From a bacterium (lineage in GTDB: Bacteria > Patescibacteriota > CPR2 > UBA1875 > JAJYID01), in contig JAJYLR010000001.1 of the NCBI GenBank assembly GCA_021787535.1, forward strand, positions 83,648 through 147,647: a stretch of DNA of 64,000 nucleotides, read 5' to 3'. The notes below the pieces were generated by a model. The model was not told the DNA's origin and did no database searches. It saw only the letters and a list, made by a program, of their open reading frames with translations. Every line of letters starts with the position of its first letter. The stretch's first letter is position 1. This document shows positions 1 to 28,784 of this stretch, piece by piece. Both the position numbers and the translations under genes were made by a program.

Positions 1-2251
1 GTTTACTTTCGCCAACACTGATATAATTTTTAACTTCAGTATCACCCTTGTCGCCAACTGTTAAATCATTAATCTCTTTTTTAAAAGTTTCACGAATAGT
101 TTTTATTACCTCTGGCTCTGATAAATTTCTTAGGATATTCAAATCGAGCAGATCCACCCGTTTAATAAATAAATGATTTTGAATGAATTCTTTAACCTTG
201 CCAAAAAGAACGTCATAGCAATTGAATAATCTCAAATCGCGCATAATGGTTTGGGCAAAGAAGCCAACTACTCTTTGATAGTCTGGCGTTGTATTTGAAT
301 CCAATGTCAAAGAATGGTGAACTTCCTCGCTAACAACGTCTTTAAAAACTATTTCCTTCTTTTCCGTCTCACTAAATTCTTTAATGGGTAATTTATGATT
401 TGGAAATTTAGAAAGGTCAAGATCAGCTAAATTTTTATATTCTCGCTGGATTCTAGGAGATAATACCGGTAGTTCGATATCAAGTTTGTGCAGATCTTTT
501 TTTGAGTTTTCGCTATCTACTTCGATCACAATTGGAGCAATCGGTTTGGAGCCGACGGACATTTGGCGCTTTTCAAGGACAACACCCTCGCCTTTGATTG
601 ATTCGACAAAATCCATAAAAGCCGGCGTTCCAATAACGCTTACATATTCCTCAATAATATCTTGTCCAAAAAACATTCTTCTTAAACCTCGTCCCAGTGT
701 TTGTTCCGGCAAGATATTGCTTTTTGAAGAATAAGCTCTTAAACCAACGATTGTTGTTACGTTTTTTACGTCCCAACCTTCTTTAAGCATAAGGACCGAA
801 ATTATTGCCTTATATTTGCTGCTCCAGCCATCAATTGCGTTAGCTTGTTTTCTAAGCTCGATAAGTTCTTTTTCATCTTTACCCTTAACGCTTTCTGAAA
901 TATCACCGCTTTTGTTGGTGTGAATTGTGAGAACGGCATTTCTCATTTCATGAAAATTCTTTTCCAGATATTCCGCCACGTCATCACAATTTTTGGTGTC
1001 ATCAGTCATTACAAAAAGGATTGATTTCTTTCCGGCTTTCTCAAGCTCCTTGTATGTTTTACGCCATTCTTCGATGCCAAGGTTTAAATATTCTTCATAT
1101 TTTTCAGAAAAAACTGAGCTTTGTTTTTCTGTGAGTTTGCCTCGGCTGGCTTGATCCGGCACAACGGGTTTTTTAACAATTTGCTGATGTATGGCTTCAA
1201 CTAGGGGATAGTCAGATATAATCTGAACGAATATATTTCCATTATGATGTTTTGGAGTTGCCGTAACATCGATTTGCAAAGCAAGCTCGCCGCCTTTAAG
1301 TTTTAGCTGATTGTGAATATCTTGAATGGATTTAAACCAAGCTAATTTATCATCATGAATATGATGAGCTTCGTCATTTATTACGATCAGCTCATCGATA
1401 TCTCGCACAATTTTGCCAAGGTCTGTTTTTGACGCATTTGTTTTAGTAACCGGCTTATCTCCTAAGAAATAATTTGAAGTGTCTTCATCCTCTGGGCCTG
1501 GATCTTTAATATCTCCTTCAAAGACCCGATGAATATTAGTTAGAAATATGTTTCCGGTTTCAGAAATTGGGCCAACCTCGTCCTGCAAATGTAGTGTTAT
1601 TTGAAAATCGTCTTGCCAGTTTTGTCCGTGATAACCATTATCCGGTAAAATTGGATCTTCATAAAAGATTTTTAATCCTTCAAAATCTGTTTTAATTCTT
1701 TCTAGCACAATGATGTTCGGGGTAATGAGGAGAAAGTTTTTGGCTAAGCCAGAATCTGGCTCATAGAGTTTATGGAAATAGGCCCAGGTCAAAATTAGAC
1801 TCATAGTTTTTGTCTTGCCACTGCCGGTTGCCATTTTGATTACAAAACGCAGCCAATCTTCGGGAAACATATTTGGACTGACACGGCCGAGAGAATCATA
1901 TCGCAAAAGATCATATTTGCTTTTTACTTTTGCTACGTCATATAACCAAATAACGGTTTCGACTGCTTCTCTTTGAGCAAAGTAATATTGGAAAGGGGTA
2001 GCAACGCCATTTCTACCAAGAATATTATGTTCTTCCTTAAACCACCAGTTTAAGAGCGCTCTTGAAGTCTCTGTCGCTCCTTTATAATGATTGTCACGCC
2101 ATTCCTTTACTTGTTTACGAAGCTCAGGGACAAAAGGAGGCAAGAGCTTCTGGTATCCTTGCTCACGTAAATCTTCAGCCGCCGGAAACCAACGAATTCC
2201 CGGATCTAAGATTTCAAATGGGTTTTTGGGGAAATTTTTATGAAGTGCCAT
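1..2251 (-). CDS. Type III restriction endonuclease Res subunit (SF2 helicase-nuclease). Partial: the C-terminus runs off the window start. Not in the ORF track because there is no stop codon inside the window.
   Basis: Manual minus-strand translation from the ATG at 2251-2249 gives MALHKNFPKNPFEILDPGIRWFPAAEDLREQGYQ... with helicase motif I KMATGSGKTKTM and the DEAH box INDEAHHIH. It reads in frame to position 1. It lies immediately downstream of the Mod gene and the small gene. Confidence 0.75.
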   Translation of the reverse strand, partial: MALHKNFPKNPFEILDPGIRWFPAAEDLREQGYQKLLPPFVPELRKQVKEWRDNHYKGATETSRALLNWWFKEEHNILGRNGVATPFQYYFAQREAVETVIWLYDVAKVKSKYDLLRYDSLGRVSPNMFPEDWLRFVIKMATGSGKTKTMSLILTWAYFHKLYEPDSGLAKNFLLITPNIIVLERIKTDFEGLKIFYEDPILPDNGYHGQNWQDDFQITLHLQDEVGPISETGNIFLTNIHRVFEGDIKDPGPEDEDTSNYFLGDKPVTKTNASKTDLGKIVRDIDELIVINDEAHHIHDDKLAWFKSIQDIHNQLKLKGGELALQIDVTATPKHHNGNIFVQIISDYPLVEAIHQQIVKKPVVPDQASRGKLTEKQSSVFSEKYEEYLNLGIEEWRKTYKELEKAGKKSILFVMTDDTKNCDDVAEYLEKNFHEMRNAVLTIHTNKSGDISESVKGKDEKELIELRKQANAIDGWSSKYKAIISVLMLKEGWDVKNVTTIVGLRAYSSKSNILPEQTLGRGLRRMFFGQDIIEEYVSVIGTPAFMDFVESIKGEGVVLEKRQMSVGSKPIAPIVIEVDSENSKKDLHKLDIELPVLSPRIQREYKNLADLDLSKFPNHKLPIKEFSETEKKEIVFKDVVSEEVHHSLTLDSNTTPDYQRVVGFFAQTIMRDLRLFNCYDVLFGKVKEFIQNHLFIKRVDLLDLNILRNLSEPEVIKTIRETFKKEINDLTVGDKGDTEVKNYISVGESK

Positions 2252-2253
2252 TG

Positions 2254-2913
2254 CTATCCTTGAGATGCTATCTTACTTATTTTCTCTAATGCGGAAGTTC
2301 CAGATAATATTTTTACAGAGTCTATTGCAGCTTTAATTTGTTGAGAAAGAACTAAAGGTGATATGAACCATTGTTTGTTTAAAATGTTTGTTATTTTTTT
2401 CCATTCATCAATAGCGTTTTCTTCTAACTTCTGTAATTCAATGTCTTTGTTTTTTTTATCATTAATTTTATCGAATGCTTTTTGATTTAGATCGACTAGT
2501 TTTTGTATGCCAACATTTACTTGGCTATGAAACATTGAGTATAATACTTTGTCATGTTCACTAATGCGATCATCTAGTATCTGACATGAATTATAAAAAT
2601 CATTTACTAGTTCGTACTCATCGGAACTCAATTTTTTAATAAAAATATGACCATAATCTTTCCAACTATTTTTAGGTAGTAGTCGTTCAGGAATTAAGGT
2701 AGTTCCATTAAAATTGAAGTTCTTTAAAACCGAGATTACTCTCTGTGCGTTTAATACTTCAGATAAAATTGTTTCGGCGGCCTCGCGCCTTTTATTTTTT
2801 TGATATGTCTGAAATCGCCAAATAGCAACAAAAATCGACATCAAAGCTAGTATGCCAGTTGATTGATCGCTAAATATCCATTTTGCTATCTCAATGACAG
2901 GAATATTAATCAT
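2254..2913 (-). CDS. Hypothetical membrane-anchored protein (219 aa) inserted between mod and res of the Type III R-M operon
   Basis: ORF with an N-terminal hydrophobic segment ([12 protein letters not shown]) followed by a charged, coiled-coil-like region. Its start overlaps the mod stop (ATGA at 2910-2913). Its stop at 2254-2256 lies 2 nt before the res ATG, which suggests translational coupling. Confidence 0.5.
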
Positions 2914-5075: not shown

Positions 5076-5336
5076 CTTGAAAACCCCTTATCGTCTTATT
5101 GTTAGCTTAATTTTAGCATTTCTAAGCGTAAAAATAAAGAATGAAGTCGTGTAATTGCGAGTTCTCCTCCTGCCATTTCTTCAAGTATATGAACAGGTCT
5201 AGCCAAGTCAAGGTAGTCTAAGATAGTTTTCTTAGCTCCACCTTAGACTTGCCCAGCGTGCTGTTCCTCTCCTTTTGATCAAAGGCGGAGGTCGAACCGC
5301 TTTTGAAGTACTGAGTTAATTGAAAGGAGAGACAAG

Positions 5337-5648
5337 ATGTGTAATCAAGTTTCTAAAGTAGCTTTGCTTAACGATCAGTTCAGAAGATCGGGCCAAGGAG
5401 TAACCTTGACTTGCGATGTGGCGGAAATAGCTGATCTGTCCGGACTGATGAAGAAAGTCCGCTCATTCAAGGAATTTAATAAAAATAACGATCCTTGGAA
5501 TGAGCATGACTTTGGAAGACTGAATTGGAAAGGTGAAAGGGTCTTCTGGAAAATCGACTATTTCAACAAGACTCTTGATGAATGGGAAGATCCGCTATCT
5601 CCCGACTGTAAAAGGCTAATGACCGTGATGCTCGCTGAAGATTACTAG
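5337..5648 (+). CDS. Hypothetical 103-aa protein with a WNEHDFGRL motif, reminiscent of small plasmid-borne DUF3768-type proteins
   Basis: ORF followed by a hairpin plus T-run terminator. The DUF3768 family guess is from memory of an HDFG motif only. Confidence 0.35.
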   Translation: MCNQVSKVALLNDQFRRSGQGVTLTCDVAEIADLSGLMKKVRSFKEFNKNNDPWNEHDFGRLNWKGERVFWKIDYFNKTLDEWEDPLSPDCKRLMTVMLAEDY

Positions 5649-5671
5649 AAGCTAAACAGCCAAACAAATTA

Positions 5672-5707
5672 AGCCCTGAGAGTTTAGGCTCTTGGGGCTT
5701 TTTTTGT
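5672..5707 (+). terminator. Rho-independent terminator
   Basis: aagccc-tgagagtttaggctcttg-gggctt hairpin followed by tttttttg. Confidence 0.6.
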
Positions 5708-5814
5708 GGCTGGGGTTAATTGATTGTAAATGAGCTTTCATAAAAACTTCAGGCCGCCCTGTAGGGCGGCCTTGATTGGTGCGTGTTTTTGCTGGGGCAG
5801 CAGCGAACTTTCGA

Positions 5815-6369
5815 TTACCGATTCCATATAGATCTAATACCGACTGAATTCATATATTTACTTTGTTCACGAATATGGCCGATTAACCGATGAACAACAC
5901 TATTAAGACGTTCATCGTGTACTCTCTGTCCCTCATTATAAAGATCTTGATATAGGGCACCGAACACTAAAGCCAACTCGTAATGTGCTCTCGGAACCTC
6001 TTGACCAGACCCAGCGGAGTCGAGATCGTTTATGGCAACAAATGATCCTTTGCAAAACCACTTGTTGCAAAAATCCCACCACTCTCCTGTTATCTTACTT
6101 ATCTGGGAAGGTGCGAGGTGTTGATAACCAAAAGCTCCCCTGATGGGAATCGGGCAAAAGGGGTACTCAGTGTAGAAATGAACACTCGTCAGATTTAAGG
6201 GATTAGTGGTAGTTGTGCACAAGTTGAGCAAATCTACCCTGACCATTCCATGAAGGTCAGTGACTCCATCATGGAAAAACTTAACGCGAATTATTATTTT
6301 CTTTTCAAGTGTTTTTAGGAGACTATTATTTAGCTGTGCTGTTTTCATCCGCGTCCTTTCAATCACCAT
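5815..6369 (-). CDS. Hypothetical protein (184 aa)
   Basis: Clean ORF with no recognisable motifs, sitting inside the accessory block. Confidence 0.4.
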   Translation of the reverse strand: MVIERTRMKTAQLNNSLLKTLEKKIIIRVKFFHDGVTDLHGMVRVDLLNLCTTTTNPLNLTSVHFYTEYPFCPIPIRGAFGYQHLAPSQISKITGEWWDFCNKWFCKGSFVAINDLDSAGSGQEVPRAHYELALVFGALYQDLYNEGQRVHDERLNSVVHRLIGHIREQSKYMNSVGIRSIWNR

Positions 6370-6675
6370 TGGAATTTCACCAGTTGGCTATGATAAGGTT
6401 CTGGCCGTTTGAATCACCATTGGACTAATCCAGATGGCTATCTGGCCCTGACAACTCTCCTGCCCGAGAGTACAAGGATTATACTATATTTAAGCCATTT
6501 CCTCAACCCTGATTTGTAACTCGAATATAAAGAAGAGTTATCCTGAAATTTCTCATTATTTTTGTAACCTAGCTTTAAATAAGTTTTGAAGAGACGAACA
6601 AAATAAAACTCCCAAAACGGGAGTTTATTTGAAACTTGTTTAAAGATTGGTGGCAAATGCACCATATAACCATAG

Positions 6676-7443
6676 TTATATTCTCTTCCATATATCCCCG
6701 GTAAGGCCAAACTGCCTTGCCTTGGCTTCGGTCGTCAAATGGATTGCCAGTTCCGGTTCATCCAACAGGGCAAGTCTGGTTTTGAAATAGCGCTTCACAT
6801 AAGTTAGTACGTCGTTGCTTGGGCAGATTATCAAAATAGTTGGAAAGTCCGTTTCTGTCTCAGCTTCCCAGTCGCTCCACTGATAAAAAGAAAGATATTT
6901 TCTGACTCTTTGCCTTAATCTTTCCTTTGGCACATTGTAAAGTATCTCCAAGAAATAATCTTTGGTTTGATTCTTGGTCGTTTGCCGAATATAGGCGGTT
7001 GGCGAGAGGTCTTTCAAGAGTTCCCCCGAGGGGTGATTATCATACTCGCTTTTCACACTCACTTCGAATCTCACTTTCCGGCTGTCTCTGTTTGTTAGAT
7101 CAAGGCAAATGTCGGCAAGCAAAAGACAGGAATTTATGAAAGAAACTGATCTTTCATTTTCCCTGTAATATTTCTGGACTGTTTTGACAGATATATTTTT
7201 ATGCTCCTTTAAATAACGGATGCCGGCTTTGGCGAGATGGTACACGGCCGGCTGAGTGTTTTTGCAAGAAGGCTTAATATATTCTTTTTTGCTCAAGTCT
7301 TTCAGCCACCTGTTTATTCCTGCTTCATCTTTATGACGCAAAAATCTTTGGATCTGAATGCGATTTAAGAACCTGTAACGAAATAAAAGAGATATAATCT
7401 CTCCCTGCCTTTTGGTTATGTCTGTTTCTTCTGTGTTAGCCAT
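6676..7443 (-). CDS. Replication-relaxation family protein (winged-helix, plasmid/ICE-associated)
   Basis: The N-terminus TDITKRQGEIISLLFRYRFLNRIQIQRFL is typical of the replication-relaxation family. It is 255 aa and adjacent to the coupling-ATPase gene. Confidence 0.5.
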   Translation of the reverse strand: MANTEETDITKRQGEIISLLFRYRFLNRIQIQRFLRHKDEAGINRWLKDLSKKEYIKPSCKNTQPAVYHLAKAGIRYLKEHKNISVKTVQKYYRENERSVSFINSCLLLADICLDLTNRDSRKVRFEVSVKSEYDNHPSGELLKDLSPTAYIRQTTKNQTKDYFLEILYNVPKERLRQRVRKYLSFYQWSDWEAETETDFPTILIICPSNDVLTYVKRYFKTRLALLDEPELAIHLTTEAKARQFGLTGDIWKRI

Positions 7444-7584
7444 TGGTTTAATTGTTCTTTCAAAAATGGATATATTAGCTTATACAATTCTGCCAATCCC
7501 TTCCTGCACCTTTCTTGTATGGGTAGAGGTAAAAGAATTAAGATGTTTTGAACTTGAAAATTGCAAATTTTTGTCGCAGCAAGA

Positions 7585-10422
7585 TTACTTTGGGAGGAGC
7601 TCTTCTTCGTCTTTTTCGGTCAGCTCGCCAAGCTCCGGATTGCCTTTACTAACAATGGATTTAATCTCTTTAACTTCTTGTTGGACGGCTTTCTTTTCTT
7701 TGATTTGGTTGATTTTAGCCGCGTATCTTTTCCTGGACTCTCTGATCACGGCTTGGGCGGTCTTCGGATCCGCCTTAACCTTGAAATCGTAAGAGCCGGC
7801 CAGAAAACTGTCTTCGGCTTTTCCGACTGCGACCTTCATATAGAAGCGGTATAAGGGGAGATTTGCGATTTCATATTTTGAAACTTCCGGGGAAAAGATG
7901 GGCAGAATAAATTGTTCGTCTTCCGGATTGGCTGTCCTAAAACAGATGACCGTGCCGACATTGGCTAAAATCACTTTAACGATATCCCTGTTCTCTATTT
8001 GCGAGACAGACTGGTGAGCCATAACAACTGAGAGCCGGTATTTGCGGGCTTCTGAGACCAGCTCGGCAAAAGTATTGGTGGCGAAGTTCTGAAACTCATC
8101 GACATATAAAAAGAAGTCTTTTCTTTTTTCTTCGCTGGTTCGGGCTCTTTTTAAAGCGGCCAATTGAATCTTGGCAATGACAAGGGAGCCGAAGAAACTG
8201 GACTCGTCTTCGCCGATTTTGCCTTTTGACAGATCGCAGAGCAAAATCTTTCCCGAATCCATCGCTTCTTCAAAGTCCAGCTTTGAATGAACTTGAGTTA
8301 AGATATTGTAATTGATCGGAGAAGCAAGCAGGCCGCCGATTTTATTGGTAATCGGCGAAATCACCGAGTTTCGCTGCAATGCTCCCAGTTTCTCGAACTC
8401 GTAAGTCCAGTAATCCTTTAAGACCTCATTATCCAGGTTTTTCACGATCTCTTTTCGGTATCTGGTTTTGGTGAGCAGATCAAGGACCGTCTTTAAAGTC
8501 GGGTCTTTTGTTTCAAGAGCCGTCAGGATTGTATTTCTAAGGACGTACTCCATTCTCGGCCCGAAGAACTTGGCGTCGTAGAACTTTTGGATAATGGAGA
8601 TAATCGAGCTTGTGACCAAAGACTTTTGTTTTTGGAGCTGGCTTAGAGTCTGCTCTTTGTCTTTTGGCAGTTCCAGTAAGTTTAAAGCTATCGGGTAAGC
8701 GTCATCATCGGGGGCAAACCAAATGACATCCTTGGCTCTTTCTTTGGGAATCGCTTTTAATATTTCCTCGACCAGCTGTCCGTGAGGGTCAATGACGCCG
8801 ACGCCCTTGCCGGCTTTAATGTCATTTAAGATCATATTGGCCAATAGGGTGGTTTTGCCCGAGCCGGTCGCCCCCAGAATATATGTGTGCCTTCTTCTTT
8901 CTTCCAGCGTTTGGCCGATGGGCGTCTCTGTCCCGCCGTAAGTGTTTTTGGCAAAAACATTGTCGAACTTGGTGGCGCTTTTCTTGAAGGAAAGCGGAGC
9001 TGAAAGCTCGGAGCTTTTAGCTTTCACTAAATCTTCTGTTCTGGCAAGCGAATGCGGAAAATGATAAAGGCCGGCCAGTTCTGAGACTGAGAGAATCGGG
9101 TTTGAGAATGCCGCGAGCCGGCGGCCGGCAAGGTTGCTTAGCGTCCATTGATTGAATAAGGGAAGGCTTAGCTTCTTGAGTAATGACTGATGAGCATTAG
9201 ACAGGCCATGGAGGGAAGCTAAAAAGCCTGAAGTCCTAAGATCATAGTCAGCGCTTGAATCCGTTTTGGCAAACATCCTGATTGAAGTTTCAAACATGGG
9301 CTGATCTGTTTTGCCTTTGACCTTATCCCTTAACTCCTGCTCGATAGGATTTGCCACATTCTCATTTGAATGCGGTTTGTTAATGACATAAAGATCGGTC
9401 GGACCGTCGTTAAGAATATAGGTAGCCATTTTCAGCGGAATCTTAATGAACCAGGCCAAAGCCAGGAGCAAGGCTTTGGCTATCGCAAGCGGAGTAGCCA
9501 AGGCTTTTTCAAAAGGTGTTTTAAAAAGTTCTCCGCTTAACGGTTCGTTTCTAAGCATGGACACGTTCAGCTTTCTAATTCGCTTTAATACTCCCTTGTG
9601 AGTTGACTTTTTGACCGGAGTAACCACTATCTGAAAAACCATCAGCTCGCCGTCTTTTAATTTGGTCATCTGGCCTGTAAGATAGGCGATTTGATCATGC
9701 TCTTTTAAGCTGCCTTGCTCTTCCAGGGGCAAAGCAAAGTCGCTTGCCAGCTTTAGCTCGGTTACGCCTTCTTTAGTTTGGCTTTTTTTGCCGGCAATGT
9801 CATTTGATATATAGTCCTTCACCTTGGTCACCTTCAGCCCCGGCATAAACGACAGCAGGGATTTTTCAATAATCGGCGCTTCTTTTTTTGATATTCCCAA
9901 GATATATCTGATCCCTTCTTCTTTTGAGGCCGTTATCTCAAACGCATATCTTTTCTTGTACCTCAGAAGTTTATATACCCCTCTATTTTGCCTGGCCAGC
10001 GAATGCAGATGGGTGAAGAGCTGTTTGGTGGCGTAAGGTGTTTTGTCGGTACGGGCCGGAAAGACCAGTTCAAGATAGGTGAGCGGTTCTTTTTTGGACA
10101 GCCGGTTTAACAAGTATCTTTTCAGGAGATATATGCCGATTAGGATGAGGATGATTATGAGGATAAAGCCCGGGAATGAAAAGTGAGAGGCAGAGAGATT
10201 ATTTAGCCATTCAAAAAAGGCCAGCTTCCAGCTGATCGGCCCGGGAATGATAACGATTGTATAGAGAAAAGCTTTTTGCAGGCCGGTCAGTGGAGCGTTA
10301 TGCTTAAGAGCAAGCAAAAGACCGGTTGCAAACTTGCCGTCGTGAGGCGAAGGCGTATAGCCGGTTAGCATTTTGTTCTGAGACGAAGAAAGAAGGATTT
10401 GAGTTAAAGAAAAAGATTTCAT
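7585..10422 (-). CDS. VirD4/TraD/TraG-type coupling-protein-like P-loop ATPase (FtsK/HerA superfamily) with an N-terminal membrane anchor
   Basis: Two N-terminal TM segments are followed by an unusual ~400-aa spacer. Then come Walker A ILGATGSGKTTLL, Walker B FFLYVDEFQNF and the MAHQSVSQI motif characteristic of type IV coupling proteins. Confidence 0.6.
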   Translation of the reverse strand: MKSFSLTQILLSSSQNKMLTGYTPSPHDGKFATGLLLALKHNAPLTGLQKAFLYTIVIIPGPISWKLAFFEWLNNLSASHFSFPGFILIIILILIGIYLLKRYLLNRLSKKEPLTYLELVFPARTDKTPYATKQLFTHLHSLARQNRGVYKLLRYKKRYAFEITASKEEGIRYILGISKKEAPIIEKSLLSFMPGLKVTKVKDYISNDIAGKKSQTKEGVTELKLASDFALPLEEQGSLKEHDQIAYLTGQMTKLKDGELMVFQIVVTPVKKSTHKGVLKRIRKLNVSMLRNEPLSGELFKTPFEKALATPLAIAKALLLALAWFIKIPLKMATYILNDGPTDLYVINKPHSNENVANPIEQELRDKVKGKTDQPMFETSIRMFAKTDSSADYDLRTSGFLASLHGLSNAHQSLLKKLSLPLFNQWTLSNLAGRRLAAFSNPILSVSELAGLYHFPHSLARTEDLVKAKSSELSAPLSFKKSATKFDNVFAKNTYGGTETPIGQTLEERRRHTYILGATGSGKTTLLANMILNDIKAGKGVGVIDPHGQLVEEILKAIPKERAKDVIWFAPDDDAYPIALNLLELPKDKEQTLSQLQKQKSLVTSSIISIIQKFYDAKFFGPRMEYVLRNTILTALETKDPTLKTVLDLLTKTRYRKEIVKNLDNEVLKDYWTYEFEKLGALQRNSVISPITNKIGGLLASPINYNILTQVHSKLDFEEAMDSGKILLCDLSKGKIGEDESSFFGSLVIAKIQLAALKRARTSEEKRKDFFLYVDEFQNFATNTFAELVSEARKYRLSVVMAHQSVSQIENRDIVKVILANVGTVICFRTANPEDEQFILPIFSPEVSKYEIANLPLYRFYMKVAVGKAEDSFLAGSYDFKVKADPKTAQAVIRESRKRYAAKINQIKEKKAVQQEVKEIKSIVSKGNPELGELTEKDEEELLPK

Positions 10423-10544
10423 CTTTAAAACTCCAACCCTCCTTAATTTAAGGACAGCATAACAAATATGGGGCCAAACGGCAATTGTTTTTTGCTGTCA
10501 AAAATGGGTTTTTAGAGATATAATTGAAGGCGTGAGGAGGAAGA

Positions 10545-10772
10545 ATGGCAAAAACTATTGAAGAACATATAGCGGAAATGGATCCGGAGATTGTGGAAAT
10601 AGGAAAAAGCATAGCGAAAGAACGCTGGAACGAAAGGCTAAAAGAGGAAACAATCTTAACGCCCGAGCTTCAAGAGCAGGAAATCGTTGGAATGATCGAG
10701 GTAGGGCCTAAGCGCGCTGAAGCCATCAGATCTAAATATGAGACTAGGATAACTGAGTTGGATAGAAAATAA
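10545..10772 (+). CDS. Small hypothetical protein (75 aa)
   Basis: ORF preceded by a ggaggaag RBS. Confidence 0.3.
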   Translation: MAKTIEEHIAEMDPEIVEIGKSIAKERWNERLKEETILTPELQEQEIVGMIEVGPKRAEAIRSKYETRITELDRK

Positions 10773-10853
10773 AGTAGCTTACAATCTATTATTCTTAATT
10801 GTAATTTTAAGCGTTCAGTAGTAAAATATTGAGTACTAAAAAGAGAGGAAGTT

Positions 10854-11762
10854 ATGGCAGAAGTTGAGAAACCACTGACTATTAAAGATGCTGTTGAAAA
10901 TCTAGAAAAAATTAGAAAATCTACATTAATTTCTTACCTTGCAGATTCTAGGGCTATCTTTGATCCTAATGACTGCCTTGTTTTAGATGACAATTTGAGC
11001 CAATTAACAAATGGTGGACAAAGTAAAATTAAAAAACTCGATCTATTTCTACAAAGTCCAGGGGGAATCCTTGAAGCTGCTTATAAATTTTTCAGAATAT
11101 GCAGAGATTATTGTGATGAATTTAGCGTAATTATTCCTTTATCTGCAAAAAGTGCGTCTACTATCATTGCTCTTGGAGCTGATGAAATTGTCATGACTAC
11201 CATTTCCGAGTTAGGGCCTGTAGATCCTATTGTGCAACATCCTCAGAATCCAAACATCAGAGTTCAAGCTAGAGCAATTAAGGAGTATATAGACTTAGTG
11301 AGCAAACCAAACCAGGCAATAAATATGGGCCCAGAGCTTAAAAAGACACTAAATAGTACATTAGATGCATATTTAATTGGCAGTTATGAAATGGCAATCA
11401 AAAATTCAAAAGAGATTATCCAAAAGTTATTAACTGAAAACAAAAAGGTTGGTTTAAATGCTGATCAAATTAAAATAGTTGTTGAAGAACTTACAGAAAG
11501 CCATGCTTCTCATTCATATCCAATTGATAGATCGGATTTAATCGGTCTTGGGTTTAAAAACATTGTAAAGGCAGAAAAAACTCCAGAATTAATCGTAGCG
11601 ATCAAGCAACTATTTAGTATTTACTCTCAATTTATGGCTCAGAATAATTTAATCAAACTCCAGGGAAATAGGGATATGAATAGACATATTCAAATCCCAC
11701 CTCAGCAAATGGTCGGTTTTGAGGATAAAGATAATCCAATCCCTCCAATAAGTTTTTCTTGA
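10854..11762 (+). CDS. Clp-fold serine peptidase (SDH/S49 SppA-like family)
   Basis: LQSPGG and AKSASTIIALGADEIVMTTISELGPVDP match the ClpP/SppA-fold serine protease signature. An aggaag RBS is present. Confidence 0.55.
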   Translation: MAEVEKPLTIKDAVENLEKIRKSTLISYLADSRAIFDPNDCLVLDDNLSQLTNGGQSKIKKLDLFLQSPGGILEAAYKFFRICRDYCDEFSVIIPLSAKSASTIIALGADEIVMTTISELGPVDPIVQHPQNPNIRVQARAIKEYIDLVSKPNQAINMGPELKKTLNSTLDAYLIGSYEMAIKNSKEIIQKLLTENKKVGLNADQIKIVVEELTESHASHSYPIDRSDLIGLGFKNIVKAEKTPELIVAIKQLFSIYSQFMAQNNLIKLQGNRDMNRHIQIPPQQMVGFEDKDNPIPPISFS

Positions 11763-11763
11763 A

Positions 11764-12282
11764 ATGACTTCTTGGGCTGTAATGAAAATGCTATTTATCG
11801 ATGGCCAGCTATTGGCTGCGATTGTAACTGGCCTAGCTTTTGCCTTCCTTTTTTACTGGTTTAATAAAAAAGATAAACATAATTTACAAGAAACTATTTG
11901 GAAAAAAGAATTTGATATGCATCAAACTGACCCAATCATTACTATTTTTAGGGGAATATTATTGACACTTAACAGAAATGAAGTTAGCAGTATAAAATCA
12001 GGTATCCCACAAATTACGCTGGATGATCTCAGGGTCGAAATACATCTAGTTAGATATTTTGACGCAAAATTAAGAAATAGGATTCTAGAAAAGATTTATA
12101 AAGAATGCTTATATTATAATAATATTGGCATTGTAAGTTCTTCAAAGGCAGTTTCAAGTACAGATGAAGAAACTGATATCGTGGTTAACGAGAGCAAGGT
12201 CGAAAAAGATAAGAGGAAAAAACTTATAAAGGAAATTCTTGATGTTGTTGACGAAATTAAAAAAAGCTATGCTAAGAAATAG
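11764..12282 (+). CDS. Hypothetical membrane protein (172 aa) translationally coupled to the protease gene
   Basis: N-terminal TM helix LLAAIVTGLAFAFLFYWF. The start is 2 nt after the stop of the upstream gene. Confidence 0.4.
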   Translation: MTSWAVMKMLFIDGQLLAAIVTGLAFAFLFYWFNKKDKHNLQETIWKKEFDMHQTDPIITIFRGILLTLNRNEVSSIKSGIPQITLDDLRVEIHLVRYFDAKLRNRILEKIYKECLYYNNIGIVSSSKAVSSTDEETDIVVNESKVEKDKRKKLIKEILDVVDEIKKSYAKK

Positions 12283-12369: not shown

Positions 12370-12690
12370 GTCGGTTTTCTGATTCCTTCCTTCCTTCCGC
12401 CCGATCTTTGCCGCAAAAACCCGAACCCGTTTATCCGGGGAAACCGGCGAAAGTTCATGCTTGAGGCGATACGAGATTCAAGAAAGACCGAAAGCCCAAC
12501 GGAAATTCGCCCCGACCCGAATTTCCGCCACAGATTTTTACAAATCCTTGTAAAAATCGCCCCTAGTATTCCTCTCCCTGTTCGAAATGGGTTCGAGCAA
12601 CGTTCAGCAATTGCGACCAAACTAAACTTTTTTCAAATTCAGGAGTATTTTGCTGTTCGCTCGCCCCGACCAAGAAAATTAATAAAATGC
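12370..12690. other. GC-rich noncoding island with internal hairpins and repeated cgccccgacc motifs. Unclassified (degenerate element cluster or small structured RNA).
   Basis: A local GC jump in an AT-rich genome. The hairpin ggaaattcg-ccccgacc-cgaatttcc is present. The only ORFs are overlapping low-quality ones (12342-12620 minus and 12457-12708 plus) with odd Arg/Pro-rich composition. Confidence 0.3.
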
Positions 12691-23162: not shown

Positions 23163-26100
23163 ATGTACAGTGTGACTAAGGTATCAATTATCAAGCTTTT
23201 TATAGCAGCAGCTATCCTGATTATTGCGGGTTATCTTGCTGTTTATGAACTTACTCTCCACCAGGTGTATCAAAAATACAAAGCACAGCAAACTTCAGGC
23301 GGAAACATTCCTGTTTCAAATACTGACCTCTCCAAAGATTACGTTTCTCTAAAGGGCGGCAACCCTCAAGCCGGCGCTATCAATGTTAGCGGTGATATTG
23401 CCGGCAATGATGTCCAGGGGCAAACCATTACCTCAACCGTTCAGAATGGAACATCTCCGCTTAATGTCACTTCATCAACCTTAGTTAACAACCTTAATGC
23501 TGACATGGTGGACGGCAAGCACGCAGATGAATTAACCAAAACAACCGTAAACAATATTACAAACACTACAACAGGTGAATCTATCCAGCCGGGAACAACA
23601 GGCCAATACTACCGCGGCGATAAATCCTGGCAGACCTTAAATTCTTCTGCTGTCGGTCTTGGAAATGTCGAGAATACAGCTCTTTCGACATGGACGGGAT
23701 CAAACCAAGTTGCCATTTTAGGAACCGTCACTTCCGGAACCTGGAACGCTGGTGCAATCAACGCGGCCGGTTCTATTACCGGTACAGCTCTCCAAGGCAC
23801 ATCTCTAAACCTTGGCTCTGGCACTATTATCGCAGGAACTATCAATGGCGCAACTATCTCGGGAGGCACATTATCCGGCGGCAATATTTCAGGCGGAACA
23901 GTGCAGGGCGGAACTCTTTCTTCAACTGCCGTCAATGGCGTAACTACAGCAAATATCTTAATCAACACCGGCTCATACTCTGACCCGTCATGGCTACAAG
24001 GTCTTGCCGGTTCAAAGATTACCGGAGATATATCAGGAAATGCCAGTGGCCTTACCGGCACACCAAATATCACCGTCGGTACCATTAGCTCCGGAAATAT
24101 TACATCTTCAGGGACGCTTAGTATTACAGGAACAGGGAATTCATCGGTAGCTGGGAATTTAGGTGTTAACAGTTTACTTACGCCGGAAAGTCTTGGGCCT
24201 GAGCTCGATCCAAACCCTACGCTTGATAACAATTGTAACGGCTGGACAATAGGAGGCCCGGATTGGGTATGCCACGGCAACTATTACTCGCATGATTCTT
24301 ACGGAACCAGCTATACTTATTTAACTAATGGGATACCATCTGTAATCGGACAAGTCTATAAGCTGACTTTCACGGTATCCGGCTACTCTGCGGGAAGCTT
24401 CGATTTCTATGTTGCGGGAGATAGAACGCCTACCATAACAGCAAATGGCACTTATACTTTTTATCTTAAAGCGCGCTATGCCAATGATTGGTTCTTTCCA
24501 GAACAAACTGCGAACTCTCTTTTTGCATTAGATAACATCTACCTCGAGGCGCAAAACGCGCTACCCGTATATTCAACAATAACTGCCGGCGATGTAGTAA
24601 CAAGAGGCGGATCAAAAACTGATGTTAGGGCATTTGGCGCAAAATGCGACGGCGTGACGGATGATTCAGCTGCAATTCAAGCAGCTGAAGATAGTCTGCC
24701 TTATAACGGCGGTACGTTATTCTTTCCGGCGGGTACCTGTATTGGTCATTTCACGGTCAAATCCAATGTCCACATCATGGGCAGCGGCATTGAAGCTACT
24801 GTTTTAAAATTGCCCAATGGTGCCAATACTGACGTGATTAATACGCAAGATTTTAATAACCTAACGGGTACTGATAGTCAAAGAGGTGCCTTAAGGGTGA
24901 CTCTTGAAAATATAACTTTAGATGGCAACAAAGGTAACAATTCCAGCGGATATTGTCTCAAAAAGTACGGTGCTCAATGGAATATCCATGATACTGTTTT
25001 CAGAAACGGCGCAAGCGGAGGTATGTATGCAGAATGGGGAACTTATCTGGGCATACCTTATGGCGCTGACTCTATGGAGGATAAATGGAGTAATATCTGG
25101 GTTCATGATAACAATGGCGCTTACGCTATTTGGATGAAAGGACCCCATGATAGCGTAATGACAAACTCGCTAATATATGCAAATGCCGGCAGCGGAATTT
25201 TTATAGATCATTCAGGGAGTACGTTTAATGGCGGGGGATTAACTATCAATGATACGCATATTTGGGGCAACTCCACCACTGGTTATGGCATTCTCTCAGA
25301 TACGGCGCTTCGAATGAACGGAGATATCGTTGAAGGAGAAAGCGGCAGCGGCGGTGTAGGGATTAGGATGTACCAAAATTACGATACAGGTGTCCTTACT
25401 GCTACCAATCTCGAGATTTTTGGCAACGAAACTGGCATATTACTCGATGCAAATACCCAGAGAAACAATATTTCTGGTGTCTATGTGCATGAAAATACAA
25501 ATGGCATTAAGGTTTTAAGCAATGAAAATAACATAACCGGAGCTTTAATTACCTGGCAAACTTCAGGTACGGGCTTAATTATGGGTGACGGAACTCATGT
25601 TGTTTCCAATAACAATATTGAAGGAAAGTTTTATAATAATGCAACCAGCATTAATTGGGGCAATCCTTCAAACACTAACGATTCTATTGATGCTTTGATA
25701 TCGACATCAGGCGGACAAACTGCTCTTTCGGGTAGCCCCTCAAGCACTAACAAGTTAAATATCTTGTCAGCAGGTTCTGGCGCCAATACTTCACTTACCA
25801 ATATTGCCGGTCAATTATCCATTGAGTCCGCCCAAACCTCTGGCAATCTCACCACGATCGCAGCACCCTCTGCCGTAACTGCAACGGGTGACATTGTAGG
25901 CCAGAGAATTGATCTCCGAAGTAACTACACGATTTCTAATCATCAGGTAACAGGATCATGGCTATCTATGCCGAATGTGACAAACTCCAGTGCAACCAGT
26001 GCGTGGTACAATGCATACTATGTTGATGGCGGTTCACTGCAAAATGCCGGTATAGGCAATGATTATTGGACGGGTTTTGGTTACCAAGAACCCAACATTA

Positions 26101-28784
26101 CAACCACATCATCGGGTTCAATAACATCAGTCGGCATAGAACTTTATAAACCGAGCACGATCAGCGGAGCCAATGCTCATAACTATAGTATTATAGTTGA
26201 TCCCGGCGCGGGCAATGTCGGCATCGGTACCACAGCGCCAGCTAGTCTTTTAACTGTAAATGCTCCGGTGACGACTGATAGTTCCACGGTAACTGCCATG
26301 ATTACCTCGGCTAATGCCGCCAACAAAGGGCTGGTAGTCCAAGGTTATACTTCTCAAACAGCTGATTTAATCCAGGCACAGAGTTCGCTTGGAGCGGTGC
26401 TTTTTAGTGTTGATAATTCAGGCAACATTACAACTAGCGGTAATACCGCCAAAACAATCGCAGAGGCGCGCAATACTTCAAATGCTGCGGGAAACAATCT
26501 GACGGTGCAGAGCGGCGGGGCATACGCTGGCGGTACCGATCTAAATGGCGGAAACCTGATAGCTGCCTCGGGTATTTCCACGGGACTCGGGTCGTCTAAC
26601 ATCTATCTTCAGACAGCTTCGGGTACAGGGTCTATTTCGAGCGTTAATGCAACTCCGACGACAAGCGGCAGCGGCTATAGTTTGAATGATATTTTGACTA
26701 TTTCGGAAGGTTCCGGGGGACAGGTTAAAGTTACAGGCGTCAGCAGCGGCCAGGTTACTGCTGTGACTTTGTATGCCGCTGGCATTGGCTATACAACAGG
26801 GACAGGCAAGGTGACTACCGGAGGTACGGGGACGGGTTGTTCGATTAATATTACAGGTGTGTCGAGCGGGACAACCGATCAAACGCCGAGCACAAAGATG
26901 ACCATTCTAGGAAACGGGAATGTCGGCATAGGCACCACGGCTCCCGGTGCCAAACTGACAATCCAGGGGAATGCTGTCAACAACGGCGCTGCTCCAATTA
27001 TGGAAATTCAAGACAGCACCGGAGCCGAACTCTTCAGAATTAATGCAAATGTAGTAGACAACCTCTTCATCGGCAACTCAGCTGGTAATGCCATTCAGAC
27101 GCCGGGTGTTTCCACTCAAGGGCTCTATGATACATTTATCGGCACTTATTCCGGTATGCATAATACCACAGGACACTACAACACCTTTATCGGTAACAGA
27201 TCGGGATCGGAGGATACAACCGGCGATCACAACACCGCGATCGGGATGCAAAGCGGGTACAATATTACCACCGGACAATATAATACTTATCTAGGAATAA
27301 CTGCCGGTCAGGATGGGACGACTGCCAATCACAATGTTGCTATAGGCGACTATGCGGGTATAGGCAATGTCAACGGCGATAAAAATATCTTTGTCGGTAG
27401 TTACTCTGGCTACAACCGGCTGATGGGTATCGGGGAGATATTACAAGGTTACAATGCCGGCAGTTCCGGCAAGTCCGGCGGGTACAACATTAGTCTAGGA
27501 GTAAACTCTCTGTATAATGATTATGATGGTATCGGCAATGTTTCCTTAGGCACTTATTCGCTGTTTAGCAATAAATCCTCGACAGATAAGTCGATTACGG
27601 GCTTTGCCAACTATTCAGGCAGTGAAAAGGTCACTACCTTAAACCCTCATGGGCTGGCAGTCGGCGACTCTGTATATATTACCTTTAACTCAATGGCATC
27701 AACTGAACTGACGCATAGTGCGCTCTATACGGTACAAAGTGTGATAGATGCCAATGACTTTACTATTGCCAGAACATACGACTCTGCCAATGACCTGAAG
27801 GGCTACTGGGAAAGAGGTGCCACACTTTCAGATAACGGCAGCGGCAAGGTGAGAGTAACTTCAAACAACCATGGCGTGCCAAACGGAGGCCTTGTTATCC
27901 TTGGAGGAACGGGAGCAAATTCATCTTATGATGGTATGCATACAGCTACGCTTATAGATGCAAACCATTTCGATCTGACGGATTTAACTTATTCATCCAG
28001 CTATACAACGGGCTGGTTTGAATACGAGCCGCAATCAGGGAATAACACCGCTGTCGGAAGCTATGCCGGCTATGCCAATACAACCGGCTATAATAATACT
28101 TTTCTTGGCTACAATGCCGGCAATGCCGGCACGACAGGCACGCTGCAGAATGCTGCGGCTATCGGATATAACGCCCAAGTTACGGAAAGCAATGCTATAG
28201 TCTTGGGCGGTACGGGCTCAAGTGCGGTCAATGTTGGCATTGGCACAACTGCCCCGGGTGCTAACCTGGAGATTGATAGCAATGCTGCAGGTACTATCGT
28301 TCAGATCATTAAGGCGTATTCCGGTCAGACCGCAGATCTTTTGGAGATCCAGGGCTCTGATACCAGCGTTTTAGCGAAGATTGATGCATCCGGCAACCTG
28401 ACGGCAAAGGCCGCATCATTTACCGGAACACTCACCGTGACAGGTCACTTTAAATCAACCCAAACAACAGCTCCGACGATAGGTACGCCGACAAGCTGCG
28501 GTACGACACCGACTGCTGCAGTGACTGCCGGTTCAACCGACTCAGCTGGATCATTAACCATCACTGCCGGTACTGGTGCTCCTGGTAACTGCGCTGCTCA
28601 AATAACCTTTAATACTGCCTATGGCGCTGCCCCTAAGTCAATTATTCTGACGCCAAGTACTGCAACCGGTCCGGCTAAACAAGCATATATTTCTGCTAGT
28701 TCTGCTACCACATTCACAGTTACATTTGGAACGGCTCCGACTGCTTCTGAAGCTAATACTTTCTACTACTGGGTTGTAGAATGA
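23163..28784 (+). CDS. Giant surface protein (1873 aa) with an N-terminal signal-anchor, a pectate-lyase-superfamily right-handed beta-helix (tailspike/depolymerase-like) and tail-fibre-like NTxxG repeats
   Basis: VRAFGAKCDGVTDDSAAIQAAEDSLPYNGGTLFFPAGTC is the hallmark N-terminus of the pectate-lyase-3 beta-helix family. Repeated xNTxxGxxAG units lie between aa ~1300 and 1480. The N-terminus is hydrophobic: IIKLFIAAAILIIAGYLAVY. Confidence 0.8.
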   Translation: MYSVTKVSIIKLFIAAAILIIAGYLAVYELTLHQVYQKYKAQQTSGGNIPVSNTDLSKDYVSLKGGNPQAGAINVSGDIAGNDVQGQTITSTVQNGTSPLNVTSSTLVNNLNADMVDGKHADELTKTTVNNITNTTTGESIQPGTTGQYYRGDKSWQTLNSSAVGLGNVENTALSTWTGSNQVAILGTVTSGTWNAGAINAAGSITGTALQGTSLNLGSGTIIAGTINGATISGGTLSGGNISGGTVQGGTLSSTAVNGVTTANILINTGSYSDPSWLQGLAGSKITGDISGNASGLTGTPNITVGTISSGNITSSGTLSITGTGNSSVAGNLGVNSLLTPESLGPELDPNPTLDNNCNGWTIGGPDWVCHGNYYSHDSYGTSYTYLTNGIPSVIGQVYKLTFTVSGYSAGSFDFYVAGDRTPTITANGTYTFYLKARYANDWFFPEQTANSLFALDNIYLEAQNALPVYSTITAGDVVTRGGSKTDVRAFGAKCDGVTDDSAAIQAAEDSLPYNGGTLFFPAGTCIGHFTVKSNVHIMGSGIEATVLKLPNGANTDVINTQDFNNLTGTDSQRGALRVTLENITLDGNKGNNSSGYCLKKYGAQWNIHDTVFRNGASGGMYAEWGTYLGIPYGADSMEDKWSNIWVHDNNGAYAIWMKGPHDSVMTNSLIYANAGSGIFIDHSGSTFNGGGLTINDTHIWGNSTTGYGILSDTALRMNGDIVEGESGSGGVGIRMYQNYDTGVLTATNLEIFGNETGILLDANTQRNNISGVYVHENTNGIKVLSNENNITGALITWQTSGTGLIMGDGTHVVSNNNIEGKFYNNATSINWGNPSNTNDSIDALISTSGGQTALSGSPSSTNKLNILSAGSGANTSLTNIAGQLSIESAQTSGNLTTIAAPSAVTATGDIVGQRIDLRSNYTISNHQVTGSWLSMPNVTNSSATSAWYNAYYVDGGSLQNAGIGNDYWTGFGYQEPNITTTSSGSITSVGIELYKPSTISGANAHNYSIIVDPGAGNVGIGTTAPASLLTVNAPVTTDSSTVTAMITSANAANKGLVVQGYTSQTADLIQAQSSLGAVLFSVDNSGNITTSGNTAKTIAEARNTSNAAGNNLTVQSGGAYAGGTDLNGGNLIAASGISTGLGSSNIYLQTASGTGSISSVNATPTTSGSGYSLNDILTISEGSGGQVKVTGVSSGQVTAVTLYAAGIGYTTGTGKVTTGGTGTGCSINITGVSSGTTDQTPSTKMTILGNGNVGIGTTAPGAKLTIQGNAVNNGAAPIMEIQDSTGAELFRINANVVDNLFIGNSAGNAIQTPGVSTQGLYDTFIGTYSGMHNTTGHYNTFIGNRSGSEDTTGDHNTAIGMQSGYNITTGQYNTYLGITAGQDGTTANHNVAIGDYAGIGNVNGDKNIFVGSYSGYNRLMGIGEILQGYNAGSSGKSGGYNISLGVNSLYNDYDGIGNVSLGTYSLFSNKSSTDKSITGFANYSGSEKVTTLNPHGLAVGDSVYITFNSMASTELTHSALYTVQSVIDANDFTIARTYDSANDLKGYWERGATLSDNGSGKVRVTSNNHGVPNGGLVILGGTGANSSYDGMHTATLIDANHFDLTDLTYSSSYTTGWFEYEPQSGNNTAVGSYAGYANTTGYNNTFLGYNAGNAGTTGTLQNAAAIGYNAQVTESNAIVLGGTGSSAVNVGIGTTAPGANLEIDSNAAGTIVQIIKAYSGQTADLLEIQGSDTSVLAKIDASGNLTAKAASFTGTLTVTGHFKSTQTTAPTIGTPTSCGTTPTAAVTAGSTDSAGSLTITAGTGAPGNCAAQITFNTAYGAAPKSIILTPSTATGPAKQAYISASSATTFTVTFGTAPTASEANTFYYWVVE
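23403..23800. repeat. 398-bp tract 100% identical to 29102-29499 in the downstream paralog (recent gene conversion or duplication)
   Basis: Base-by-base comparison of the two listings across all lines in this interval. Flanks diverge immediately at 23402/29101 and at 23801/29500. Confidence 0.9.

Follow-up and report, generated by a model that had tools for sequence, protein, structure and literature searches.

A MOBC relaxase is characteristic of elements that bring their own VirD4-type coupling protein, among them CloDF13-type plasmids and Streptococcus integrative mobilisable elements (IMEs), and two of these IMEs are believed to exchange the coupling protein at the helper's type IV secretion system (T4SS) for their own (PMC5704250, section 3.3). 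The domain concerned, Replic_Relax (PF13814), is that of the MOBC relaxases, pAD1 TraX and CloDF13 MobC among them (PMC5357655 Table 1; PMC12857230), and has been placed in the PD-(D/E)XK superfamily with a fused helix-turn-helix (HTH) (PMC5357655 Table 1; PMC12857230; PMC3424549). MOBC relaxases form no covalent intermediate (PMC12857230). Here we describe a comparable locus in a bacterium of the candidate phyla radiation (CPR, or Patescibacteria), at positions 5337-12282 of a 64-kb stretch of contig JAJYLR010000001.1 (the window), where a 945-residue coupling-protein-like ATPase is encoded next to a Replic_Relax protein. The region is probably the mobilisation (MOB) module of an IME of ~16.7 kb, belonging to the type that combines a MOBC relaxase with a coupling protein of its own.

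CPR bacteria account for a large part of bacterial diversity, and in their only genetic model the T4SS is essential. A survey of 3,035 Patescibacteria genomes found VirB4 in 2,417 of them and 5,713 VirD4-like type IV coupling proteins (T4CPs) in 2,918, about two per genome (PMC12102498). In addition, we found a relative of the window ATPase in at least 596 GTDB species genomes, nearly all of them CPR, and the premise of the original prediction, made from the window sequence, that conjugation machinery is rare or absent in such bacteria is therefore not tenable. What the survey found to be scarce is the relaxase: only 109 were detected in the 3,035 genomes, 58 of them MOBC, with 39 relaxase genes of any class near t4cp, and the word "integrase" is absent from its main text (PMC12102498). 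This published near-absence of relaxases is the reason why the T4SS is thought to have been repurposed.

The features on which the argument rests are listed below, with coordinates that are positions of the window unless prefixed with a locus identifier (L).

7585-10422, minus strand: coupling-protein-like ATPase of VirD4/TrwB type, 945 residues (Pfam, PDB sequence search, AlphaFold2 model)
6676-7443, minus strand: Replic_Relax (PF13814, MOBC relaxase family) protein, 255 residues (Pfam, AlphaFold2 model, Foldseek)
5337-5648, plus strand: DUF3768 protein, 103 residues (Pfam E 4.2e-22), convergent with the ATPase/Replic_Relax operon
5160-5300, plus strand: structured 140-nucleotide element with a long imperfect hairpin (covariance model), ending 37 nucleotides 5' of the DUF3768 start codon
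12387-12666, no strand: att-like repeat arm, putative island border (repeat search, blastn, pairwise alignment)

The ATPase, the Replic_Relax protein and DUF3768

The ATPase exceeds the Pfam cut-offs of three T4CP families, namely TrwB_AAD_bind (42.1 bits against 20.5), T4SS-DNA_transf (36.0 against 20.1) and TraG-D_C (31.4 against 22), and also that of DUF87 (27.1 bits against 23.2). It fails the cut-off of FtsK_SpoIIIE (21.1 bits against 24), of which only the P-loop is covered, and that of HerA_C. A profile of the ATPase family searched against PDB sequences matched DotL (1e-11) and TrwB (8e-10), both ahead of HerA. The NCBIfam T4CP models all score far under their cut-offs (for example 59.5 against 366 for SXT_TraD), while the Pfam T4CP families are passed, which makes the protein a divergent T4CP superfamily member outside every curated subfamily. 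The Walker A (GATGSGKT, residues 517-524), Walker B (DEF, residues 775-777) and AHQSxxQ (residues 802-808) motifs are all present as originally read, with residues G517, G520, G522, K523, D775, E776, Q804 and Q808 showing no variation in 25 homologues.

The AlphaFold2 model of the ATPase has a pLDDT of 79 overall and ~90 in the ATPase part, in which an all-α insertion (residues ~593-708) separates Walker A from Walker B within the nucleotide-binding domain (NBD). Foldseek superposes the model onto TrwB with a TM-score of 0.68-0.72 and a root-mean-square deviation (RMSD) of 4-5 Å over ~450 columns, the all-α insertion included, despite an identity to solved T4CPs of only 14-16%. Superposition onto HerA is much poorer (TM-score 0.42-0.53, RMSD 16-19 Å). 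VirB4/TrwK gave the lowest E-values, but reach a TM-score of only ~0.3. The original prediction had set a HerA- or FtsK-like family against a conjugative one, and T4CPs come out ahead in the Pfam, NCBIfam and PDB sequence searches, with TrwB as the best superposition.

The ~400-residue N-terminal spacer that had been remarked on as unusual is real, and corresponds to DUF8128 (PF26449; residues ~110-450 in the precomputed annotation). Kyte-Doolittle analysis shows a strong hydrophobic segment at residues ~81-101 (hydropathy window above 2.0 at ~76-101), a weaker one at residues 51-70 and an additional one at residues ~307-330, so that an N-terminal membrane anchor is predicted from hydropathy alone. 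The second hydrophobic helix, at residues 307-330, falls within DUF8128. This suggests that residues ~105-305 could form a large extracytoplasmic loop between two membrane spans, a larger counterpart of the periplasmic loop that canonical coupling proteins have. Altogether, the protein is best described as a divergent, putatively membrane-anchored coupling protein of the VirD4/TrwB type with a predicted coupling role.

The 255-residue protein stays in the replication-relaxation family to which it had been assigned, matching PF13814 with an E-value of 9.3e-10 and 39.3 bits (gathering cut-off 25.3) over profile positions 4-189 of 191. Its AlphaFold2 model has a pLDDT of 92.8. The top Foldseek matches of the N-terminus are the MarR-family regulators ZitR, HpaR, MarR and MepR, each with a probability of 1.00, which identifies a winged helix; the full-length model gave a weak match to FokI (E ~1e-3), and its C-terminal α/β domain holds a non-canonical PD-(D/E)XK-like motif. 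Over 183 distinct homologues, position 95 is acidic in 98% (Glu in the window), position 166 is acidic in 83% (Glu), position 173 is basic in 74% (Lys) and position 183 is Tyr in 96% (Tyr). Position 149, the site of the canonical "PD" aspartate, is occupied by His, Asp, Gln or Asn in the family, with Asp in 25%, and by Thr in the window, and position 169, Asp or Glu in 73%, is Tyr. Francia et al. reportedly gave the catalytic residues of TraX in 2013 as D...E.E...K..RY. By fold and family, the 255-residue protein is a Replic_Relax/MOBC member and a putative nuclease. No match to it was found by tblastn in 72,556 plasmids, and no relatives were found among IMG/VR viral contigs.

The ATPase and the Replic_Relax protein are repeatedly encoded together, and in several relatives as a single polypeptide. 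About ten of the 103 ATPase homologues are 1116-1266 residues long, six of these with a C-terminal PF13814 domain. Residues 997-1248 of one such fusion (P0018) align to the whole 255-residue protein with 46% identity (BLASTP E 4e-71), and residues 978-1229 of another (P0009) with 52% identity (BLASTP E 4e-79). Where the genes are separate, Replic_Relax lies 70-180 nucleotides downstream of the ATPase gene in 11 of the ~22 closest genome loci. Among the metagenome loci, which were recruited by Replic_Relax, the ATPase is directly upstream of Replic_Relax or fused to it in 18 of the 38 with enough upstream sequence, and DUF3768, or DUF2958 in a more distant subgroup, follows Replic_Relax in 22 of 49. 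DUF3768 is likewise kept downstream of Replic_Relax in the genome loci L083, L084, L085 and L018. On the strength of this synteny and of the fusions, the ATPase and Replic_Relax appear to form one functional unit, with the convergent DUF3768 as a third conserved member of the module.

Moreover, a large serine recombinase adjoins the module in L003-L008, L012, L013, L015, L021 and L084, in addition to 16 metagenome loci. DUF3768 itself is present in 448 plasmids, 70% of which are typed as conjugative or mobilisable; on pDSHI03 it adjoins an ArdC-like zincin and a large ParB. The surroundings of the module vary from one relative to another. L083 has the ATPase/Replic_Relax/DUF3768 triad alone, and L084 combines a recombinase, the fused gene, DUF3768 and a defence cargo of KAP NTPase, HEPN AbiV, methyltransferase and PLD genes. 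In L085 and L086, the fused gene and DUF3768 lie 4 kb from a minimal T4SS operon that encodes TrbC/T4SS_pilin, PrgI, TraC-like and VirB4-like proteins and an M23 peptidase. A few kb from the fused gene, L085 also encodes bAvd and a reverse transcriptase (RVT_1), followed by a 1035-residue FN3-repeat protein (L085 2677-4714), which is likely a diversity-generating retroelement. In the window, the corresponding cargo is a type III restriction-modification (R-M) system, which stands beside the module in no relative.

The structured element, the island and its cargo

The spacer 5' of DUF3768 is ~260 nucleotides long, with a similar length across relatives, and holds a long imperfect hairpin. A covariance model (R1), built from five sequences, scores 112.7 bits at 5160-5300 and has 23 distinct strong matches of 65-144 bits, all on the DUF3768 strand and ending ~30-37 nucleotides 5' of the DUF3768 start codon. 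The element was seen in every metagenome locus where DUF3768 was detected, and a search of ~1 Mb of further loci, among them two DUF3768 plasmids of Alphaproteobacteria, yielded no copy apart from that of the window. Once the 23 sequences are aligned, pairing holds for 89% of cells and double changes are seen at 26 of the 36 pairs, a level reached in none of 500 shuffles and compared to 37-49% pairing in slid controls, figures that are somewhat inflated as the alignment was fitted to the model itself. The folding z-score is -4.9. The element has a GCUCCAC loop and two AAGGTCG motifs, the motifs being conserved, and Rfam gave no match for it; this 140-nucleotide covarying element is newly described here.

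G-U pairs outnumber A-C pairs by 41 to 12, and therefore the DUF3768-sense strand folds better. Because the element is tightly coupled to the DUF3768 start, an RNA leader is the favoured interpretation, and a single-strand origin or candidate origin of transfer (oriT) is possible. An Frpo-type single-strand promoter is disfavoured, since, judging by the G-U bias, it is the coding-sense strand and not the template that forms the better hairpin; no -35/-10 pair is evident by eye at 5160-5300. In seven distant recombinase/ATPase/Replic_Relax loci (L003, L004, L005, L006, L007, L021 and L022), DUF2958 replaces DUF3768, and a different conserved hairpin-rich element (GGGGTCTTACCCC, GCAAGGG...CCCTTGC, GGGAAGCATGCGCATGCTTCCC) lies 5' of DUF2958.

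The original prediction had suggested a check for att-like direct repeats at 5.1-5.3 and 12.3-12.7 kb. No repeat links the two sites beyond short chance matches, and the first is the structured element upstream of DUF3768. A probable border lies at ~12.6 kb, with its partner outside the window. A public contig of the same strain (L088), which reaches 7.7 kb beyond the window start, holds this partner (w = 12914 - x, for position w in the window and x in L088). To the left of the restriction gene, it encodes in order a 219-residue ORF, a 181-residue ORF, an HTH_31 regulator, an inverted copy of the repeat unit U described below, a serine recombinase, tRNA-Pro(TGG) and the core genes HU, YmdB and RNase Y. 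The recombinase is a large serine recombinase of 510 residues (L088 15505-17102, ~2.6-4.2 kb left of the window start; Pfam Resolvase, Recombinase and Zn_ribbon_recom), homologous to those beside the module in relatives (E 1e-67). The last ~50 codons of its gene lie in the repeat unit, and tRNA-Pro(TGG) follows directly on the opposite strand.

Two inverted repeats were found. One of 281 nucleotides with 91% identity connects window 12387-12666 to a site upstream of the recombinase, and the other, of 158 nucleotides with 96% identity, has one arm on either side of the recombinase gene, the outer of which directly adjoins tRNA-Pro. They overlap by 53 nucleotides in the middle copy and thus make up a single 386-nucleotide unit, U, which is intact and inverted at L088 14985-15370 and partial at L088 16874-17031 and window 12387-12666. 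The last of these is the only copy in the window, and no copy occurs in any other locus. U is split over the island ends, with its first 158 nucleotides beside tRNA-Pro and its last 281 (positions 106-386) at window 12666-12387. A split with a 53-nucleotide overlap would be expected of an attP-like U (P-O-P') with attR and attL at the ends, so that window ~12.6 kb may be an attL-like border. The island would then extend ~16.7 kb, from window ~12,640 leftward to ~4.1 kb beyond the window start. The inverted U copy would also allow a 14.5-kb segment to invert, and in the flipped orientation the recombinase and the ATPase would be divergent neighbours, as in the recombinase-linked context (a) described below. 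Both ends of the Logan contig L002 fall inside the 281-nucleotide arms.

The original prediction had considered a remnant or a decaying integrative and conjugative element (ICE). This is not supported, because an intact 510-residue recombinase, att-like repeats, tRNA-Pro, the MOB module and cargo are all present, and the island looks complete for a mobilisable element, which never needed mating-pore genes of its own. The remaining genes of the island that lie in the window are as follows.

1-2251, minus strand: type III restriction subunit Res, 900 residues, the last ~150 codons beyond the window (ResIII and RE_endonuc)
2254-2913, minus strand: gene between mod and res, 219 residues
2910-5075, minus strand: type III R-M methyltransferase Mod, 721 residues, island cargo (Pfam N6_N4_Mtase E 2.4e-45; PADLOC MTase_III E 2.6e-113)
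5815-6369, minus strand: open reading frame (ORF) between Replic_Relax and DUF3768, 184 residues (177 in public gene calls)
10545-10772, plus strand: ORF divergent from the ATPase gene, 75 residues, called as a gene in public assemblies
10854-11762, plus strand: SDH-type ClpP-like serine protease, 302 residues (Pfam SDH_protease E 2.2e-17)
11764-12282, plus strand: putative membrane protein, 172 residues, translationally coupled to the SDH protease

The R-M system that had been noticed next to the module is thus of type III. Its 219-residue middle gene overlaps both mod and res by 4 nucleotides and has no family match in Pfam, NCBIfam, PADLOC or PHROGs; such a three-gene type III arrangement is unusual. 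The 184- and 75-residue ORFs are the small ORFs already recorded as having no recognisable function. The former has zero matches in Pfam, NCBIfam, PADLOC and PHROGs, has no cluster partner among the 80 loci compared and is not kept in relatives; the latter has no significant family match in Pfam. The protease also matches NCBIfam Clp_like_SDH (E 1.5e-20, under the model cut-off) and PHROG 11747 of unknown function (E 5e-38), and its 172-residue partner has no family match in Pfam, NCBIfam, PADLOC or PHROGs. The pair (10854-12282) is missing from all related loci and is probably island cargo.

Beyond the border, from 12.7 to 64 kb, the window holds glycolysis and other housekeeping genes. Among the glycolysis genes are two giant ORFs on the plus strand, of 1873 residues (23163-28784; no Pfam match) and 1289 residues (28862-32731; a pectate-lyase-like domain), which are possibly surface proteins. 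No tRNA or Rfam family was found in the window.

Distribution in CPR and competing explanations

Relatives of the ATPase occur in Saccharibacteria, Daviesbacteria, WWE3, Peregrinibacteria, Dojkabacteria, Uhrbacteria, Gracilibacteria and Nealsonbacteria, among others. Neighbour clustering over the 80 loci separates four contexts. Context (a), to which the window's subfamily belongs, consists of a large serine recombinase, the ATPase, Replic_Relax, a small ORF and then DUF3768 or DUF2958. In context (b), the ATPase is the last gene of Saccharibacteria T4SS operons, after genes for VirB2-like, VirB6-like and VirB4-like proteins and a CHAP hydrolase. Context (c) is a large Dojkabacteria operon with 13 conserved genes around the ATPase, and context (d) comprises Paceibacteria-type loci where two adjacent genes encode DUF8128 and the ATPase separately. 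The DUF8128 gene of context (d) encodes ~440-490 residues and the ATPase gene ~500-660, in an operon that follows three conserved genes (clusters C1, C1 and C2); such split loci include L035, L036, L039, L042, L045, L049, L054, L065, L070 and L074.

The original prediction is supported in the identities of both genes and in the option of a mobilisable element, one of several that it raised. We propose that the large serine recombinase at the far end would excise the element and integrate it beside tRNA-Pro, with putative att sites in the split copies of U. The 255-residue protein, as a MOBC-type relaxase-like factor that combines a MarR-like winged helix with a putative restriction-endonuclease-like domain, would recognise and process the element DNA, possibly by nicking it. 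The 945-residue ATPase may link the resulting nucleoprotein to a type IV secretion channel, which the resident Patescibacteria T4SS would provide in trans and through which the DNA would be transferred. DUF3768 with its structured upstream element would be a conserved accessory of the module, and the type III R-M system would travel as cargo, as would the SDH protease with its partner.

Several observations weigh against this proposal. As originally noted, no VirB4, VirB6 or pilin genes were found in the 64-kb window by tblastn and Pfam, and the island gene list has none either. With a VirB4-like protein as query (L085 20428-22206), 7,911 matches were obtained at E <= 1e-30, and none of the best 120 is on this strain's 635,771-bp contig. 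An oriT with a nic site was not identified by a repeat search of the operon's intergenic regions, which hold no significant repeats, the 5160-5300 hairpin being a candidate only. The nuclease signature is non-canonical, with Thr149 at the "PD" site and Tyr at the acidic position 169, and the low NCBIfam scores of the ATPase point the same way. At the borders, the direct repeat that bounds the island is only 53 nucleotides long with only 74% identity (window 12614-12666 against the sequence abutting tRNA-Pro), and simple integration leaves the internal intact inverted copy of U over. GC content does not mark the island, and GC skew, which had been suggested as a marker, is equally uninformative. 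Furthermore, only 148 of the 5,713 Patescibacteria T4CP homologues are near virB4, and t4cp was not essential in the one cultivated Patescibacteria model; an exaptation was proposed on these two grounds (PMC12102498).

The alternative that survives best follows from that proposal, namely an exapted, non-conjugative chromosomal device of CPR that imports DNA or nucleoprotein from the host, or exports it, together with the essential T4SS, while the island itself is not transferred. The abundance of T4CPs remote from virB4 and the rarity of relaxases detectable by MOBscan (PMC12102498) fit such a device, as do the spread of the ATPase family over nearly all CPR classes, the large conserved operons of some subfamilies that have no recombinase (L025-L029 and the Paceibacteria-type loci), and the degenerate nuclease motif of Replic_Relax. 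However, it is the window's subfamily that goes together with serine recombinases, and its cargo and chromosomal positions vary. Moreover, the ATPase shares 55-65% identity among its closest relatives, compared to 78-92% for the VirB4-like core ATPase in the best 120 of the 7,911 matches, a much faster divergence that fits an accessory mobile gene as against a core gene. We thus regard an exapted device as unlikely, though deserving of serious thought.

A second alternative, quite improbable in our view, is a self-contained module for double-stranded DNA translocation or replication of an integrated plasmid-like element, in which Replic_Relax would be an initiator or adaptor and the ATPase would pump alone, like the FtsK-like TraB of Streptomyces, with no T4SS. 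The Pfam name of the replication-relaxation family and the match of the 255-residue protein's N-terminus to PHROG 2190, "replication initiation protein" (E 3.4e-9), agree with an initiator, and a MOBC relaxase that forms no covalent intermediate (PMC12857230) would be compatible with it. The fusion of adaptor and motor in a single polypeptide suits a one-protein machine, and roughly one in two Replic_Relax homologues lacks an ATPase beside it. Nevertheless, FtsK_SpoIIIE stays under its cut-off with only the P-loop matched, the ATPase fold is closer to TrwB than to other translocases, members of its family are encoded in or near T4SS operons, and a search of 5.0-12.8 kb revealed neither a replication origin nor iterons.

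A role in defence against phages, as a HerA- or MADS Mad8-like ATPase acting with the type III R-M system 2.5 kb away, is hardly credible and was rejected: the best PADLOC match is indeed mad8 (E 3.2e-25, 87 bits), followed by HerA models, these matches all falling on the ATPase, and HerA structures are among the Foldseek matches, but the mad8 match weighs little because it is a broad, generic ATPase profile built, like the MADS profiles in general, from HHpred-versus-PDB alignments (bioRxiv 10.1101/2023.03.30.534895) and no other mad component or HerA partner (NurA, Sir2 or DUF4297) was found by PADLOC among eight neighbouring proteins, while the conserved partners are Replic_Relax, DUF3768 and the recombinase rather than the R-M system, and HerA superposes far worse than TrwB.

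The mobilisable element therefore remains the reading we prefer, and it has consequences for CPR biology. The recurrent and apparently mobile ATPase/MOBC-family/DUF3768 module is a concrete candidate for DNA mobilisation in CPR and for the missing DNA-processing partner of the T4SS. It is not rare, and its gene families are already known; it offers handles in the form of recombinase-bounded islands, their accompanying defence cargo and a defined structured DNA or RNA element. A bolder idea, which we put forward tentatively and consider doubtful, is that the pair of DUF8128-T4CP and Replic_Relax represents a "very different relaxase" and DNA-processing module not found by the 2025 survey, and that the Patescibacteria T4SS is a genuine DNA-transfer machine. 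If so, this near-universal T4SS would serve conjugation between CPR cells or DNA exchange with hosts, and the 140-nucleotide element would be an oriT or a single-strand origin.

Comparison with known systems

The locus is most similar to the MobC/MobB pair of CloDF13, TraX of pAD1 and the Streptococcus IMEs, with a Replic_Relax/MOBC protein of winged-helix N-terminus and putative restriction-endonuclease-like C-terminus next to its own VirD4-type ATPase, and no mating-pore genes (PMC5357655, PMC5704250, PMC12857230). As in the Streptococcus IMEs, a site-specific recombinase is also present. Compared to the MOBC systems that have their own coupling protein, the locus differs in the extra ~400-residue DUF8128, the fusions in relatives, the non-canonical catalytic signature, the CPR host, the DUF3768 gene with its structured leader, and an oriT that is only a candidate.

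The ATPase resembles VirD4, TrwB and TraD in its Walker A and B motifs, an NBD with an all-α insertion (TM-score ~0.70 to TrwB), the predicted N-terminal anchor, its linkage to a relaxase-family gene and the Pfam T4CP families that it passes. However, it shares only 14-16% identity with solved T4CPs and scores far under the thresholds of the NCBIfam T4CP models, and its anchor is separated from the NBD by DUF8128, with an extra hydrophobic helix. Some CPR lineages even encode DUF8128 and the ATPase in two genes.

Within the phylum, the ATPase belongs to the same protein family as the T4CP homologues of the MPF-FATA-like Patescibacteria T4SS (Quinonero-Coronel et al. 2025, PMC12102498), and members of the family end the T4SS operons of Saccharibacteria. 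In contrast to the near-absence of relaxases concluded in that study, the Replic_Relax module is recurrent here.

The island as a whole is similar to the serine-recombinase IMEs of Firmicutes (Tn4451/TndX type), which consist of one large serine recombinase at one end, a mobilisation module and cargo, with no mating pore (PMC5704250). The direct repeats of those IMEs are very short and their insertion sites usually lie inside genes, whereas the island described here has border repeats of 158-281 nucleotides, an internal inverted copy of the junction and a site beside tRNA-Pro. Altogether, the new aspects of this locus are the CPR host, the DUF8128 extension, the recurrent fusion, the non-canonical nuclease motif, DUF3768 with its structured element and the long-repeat island ends.

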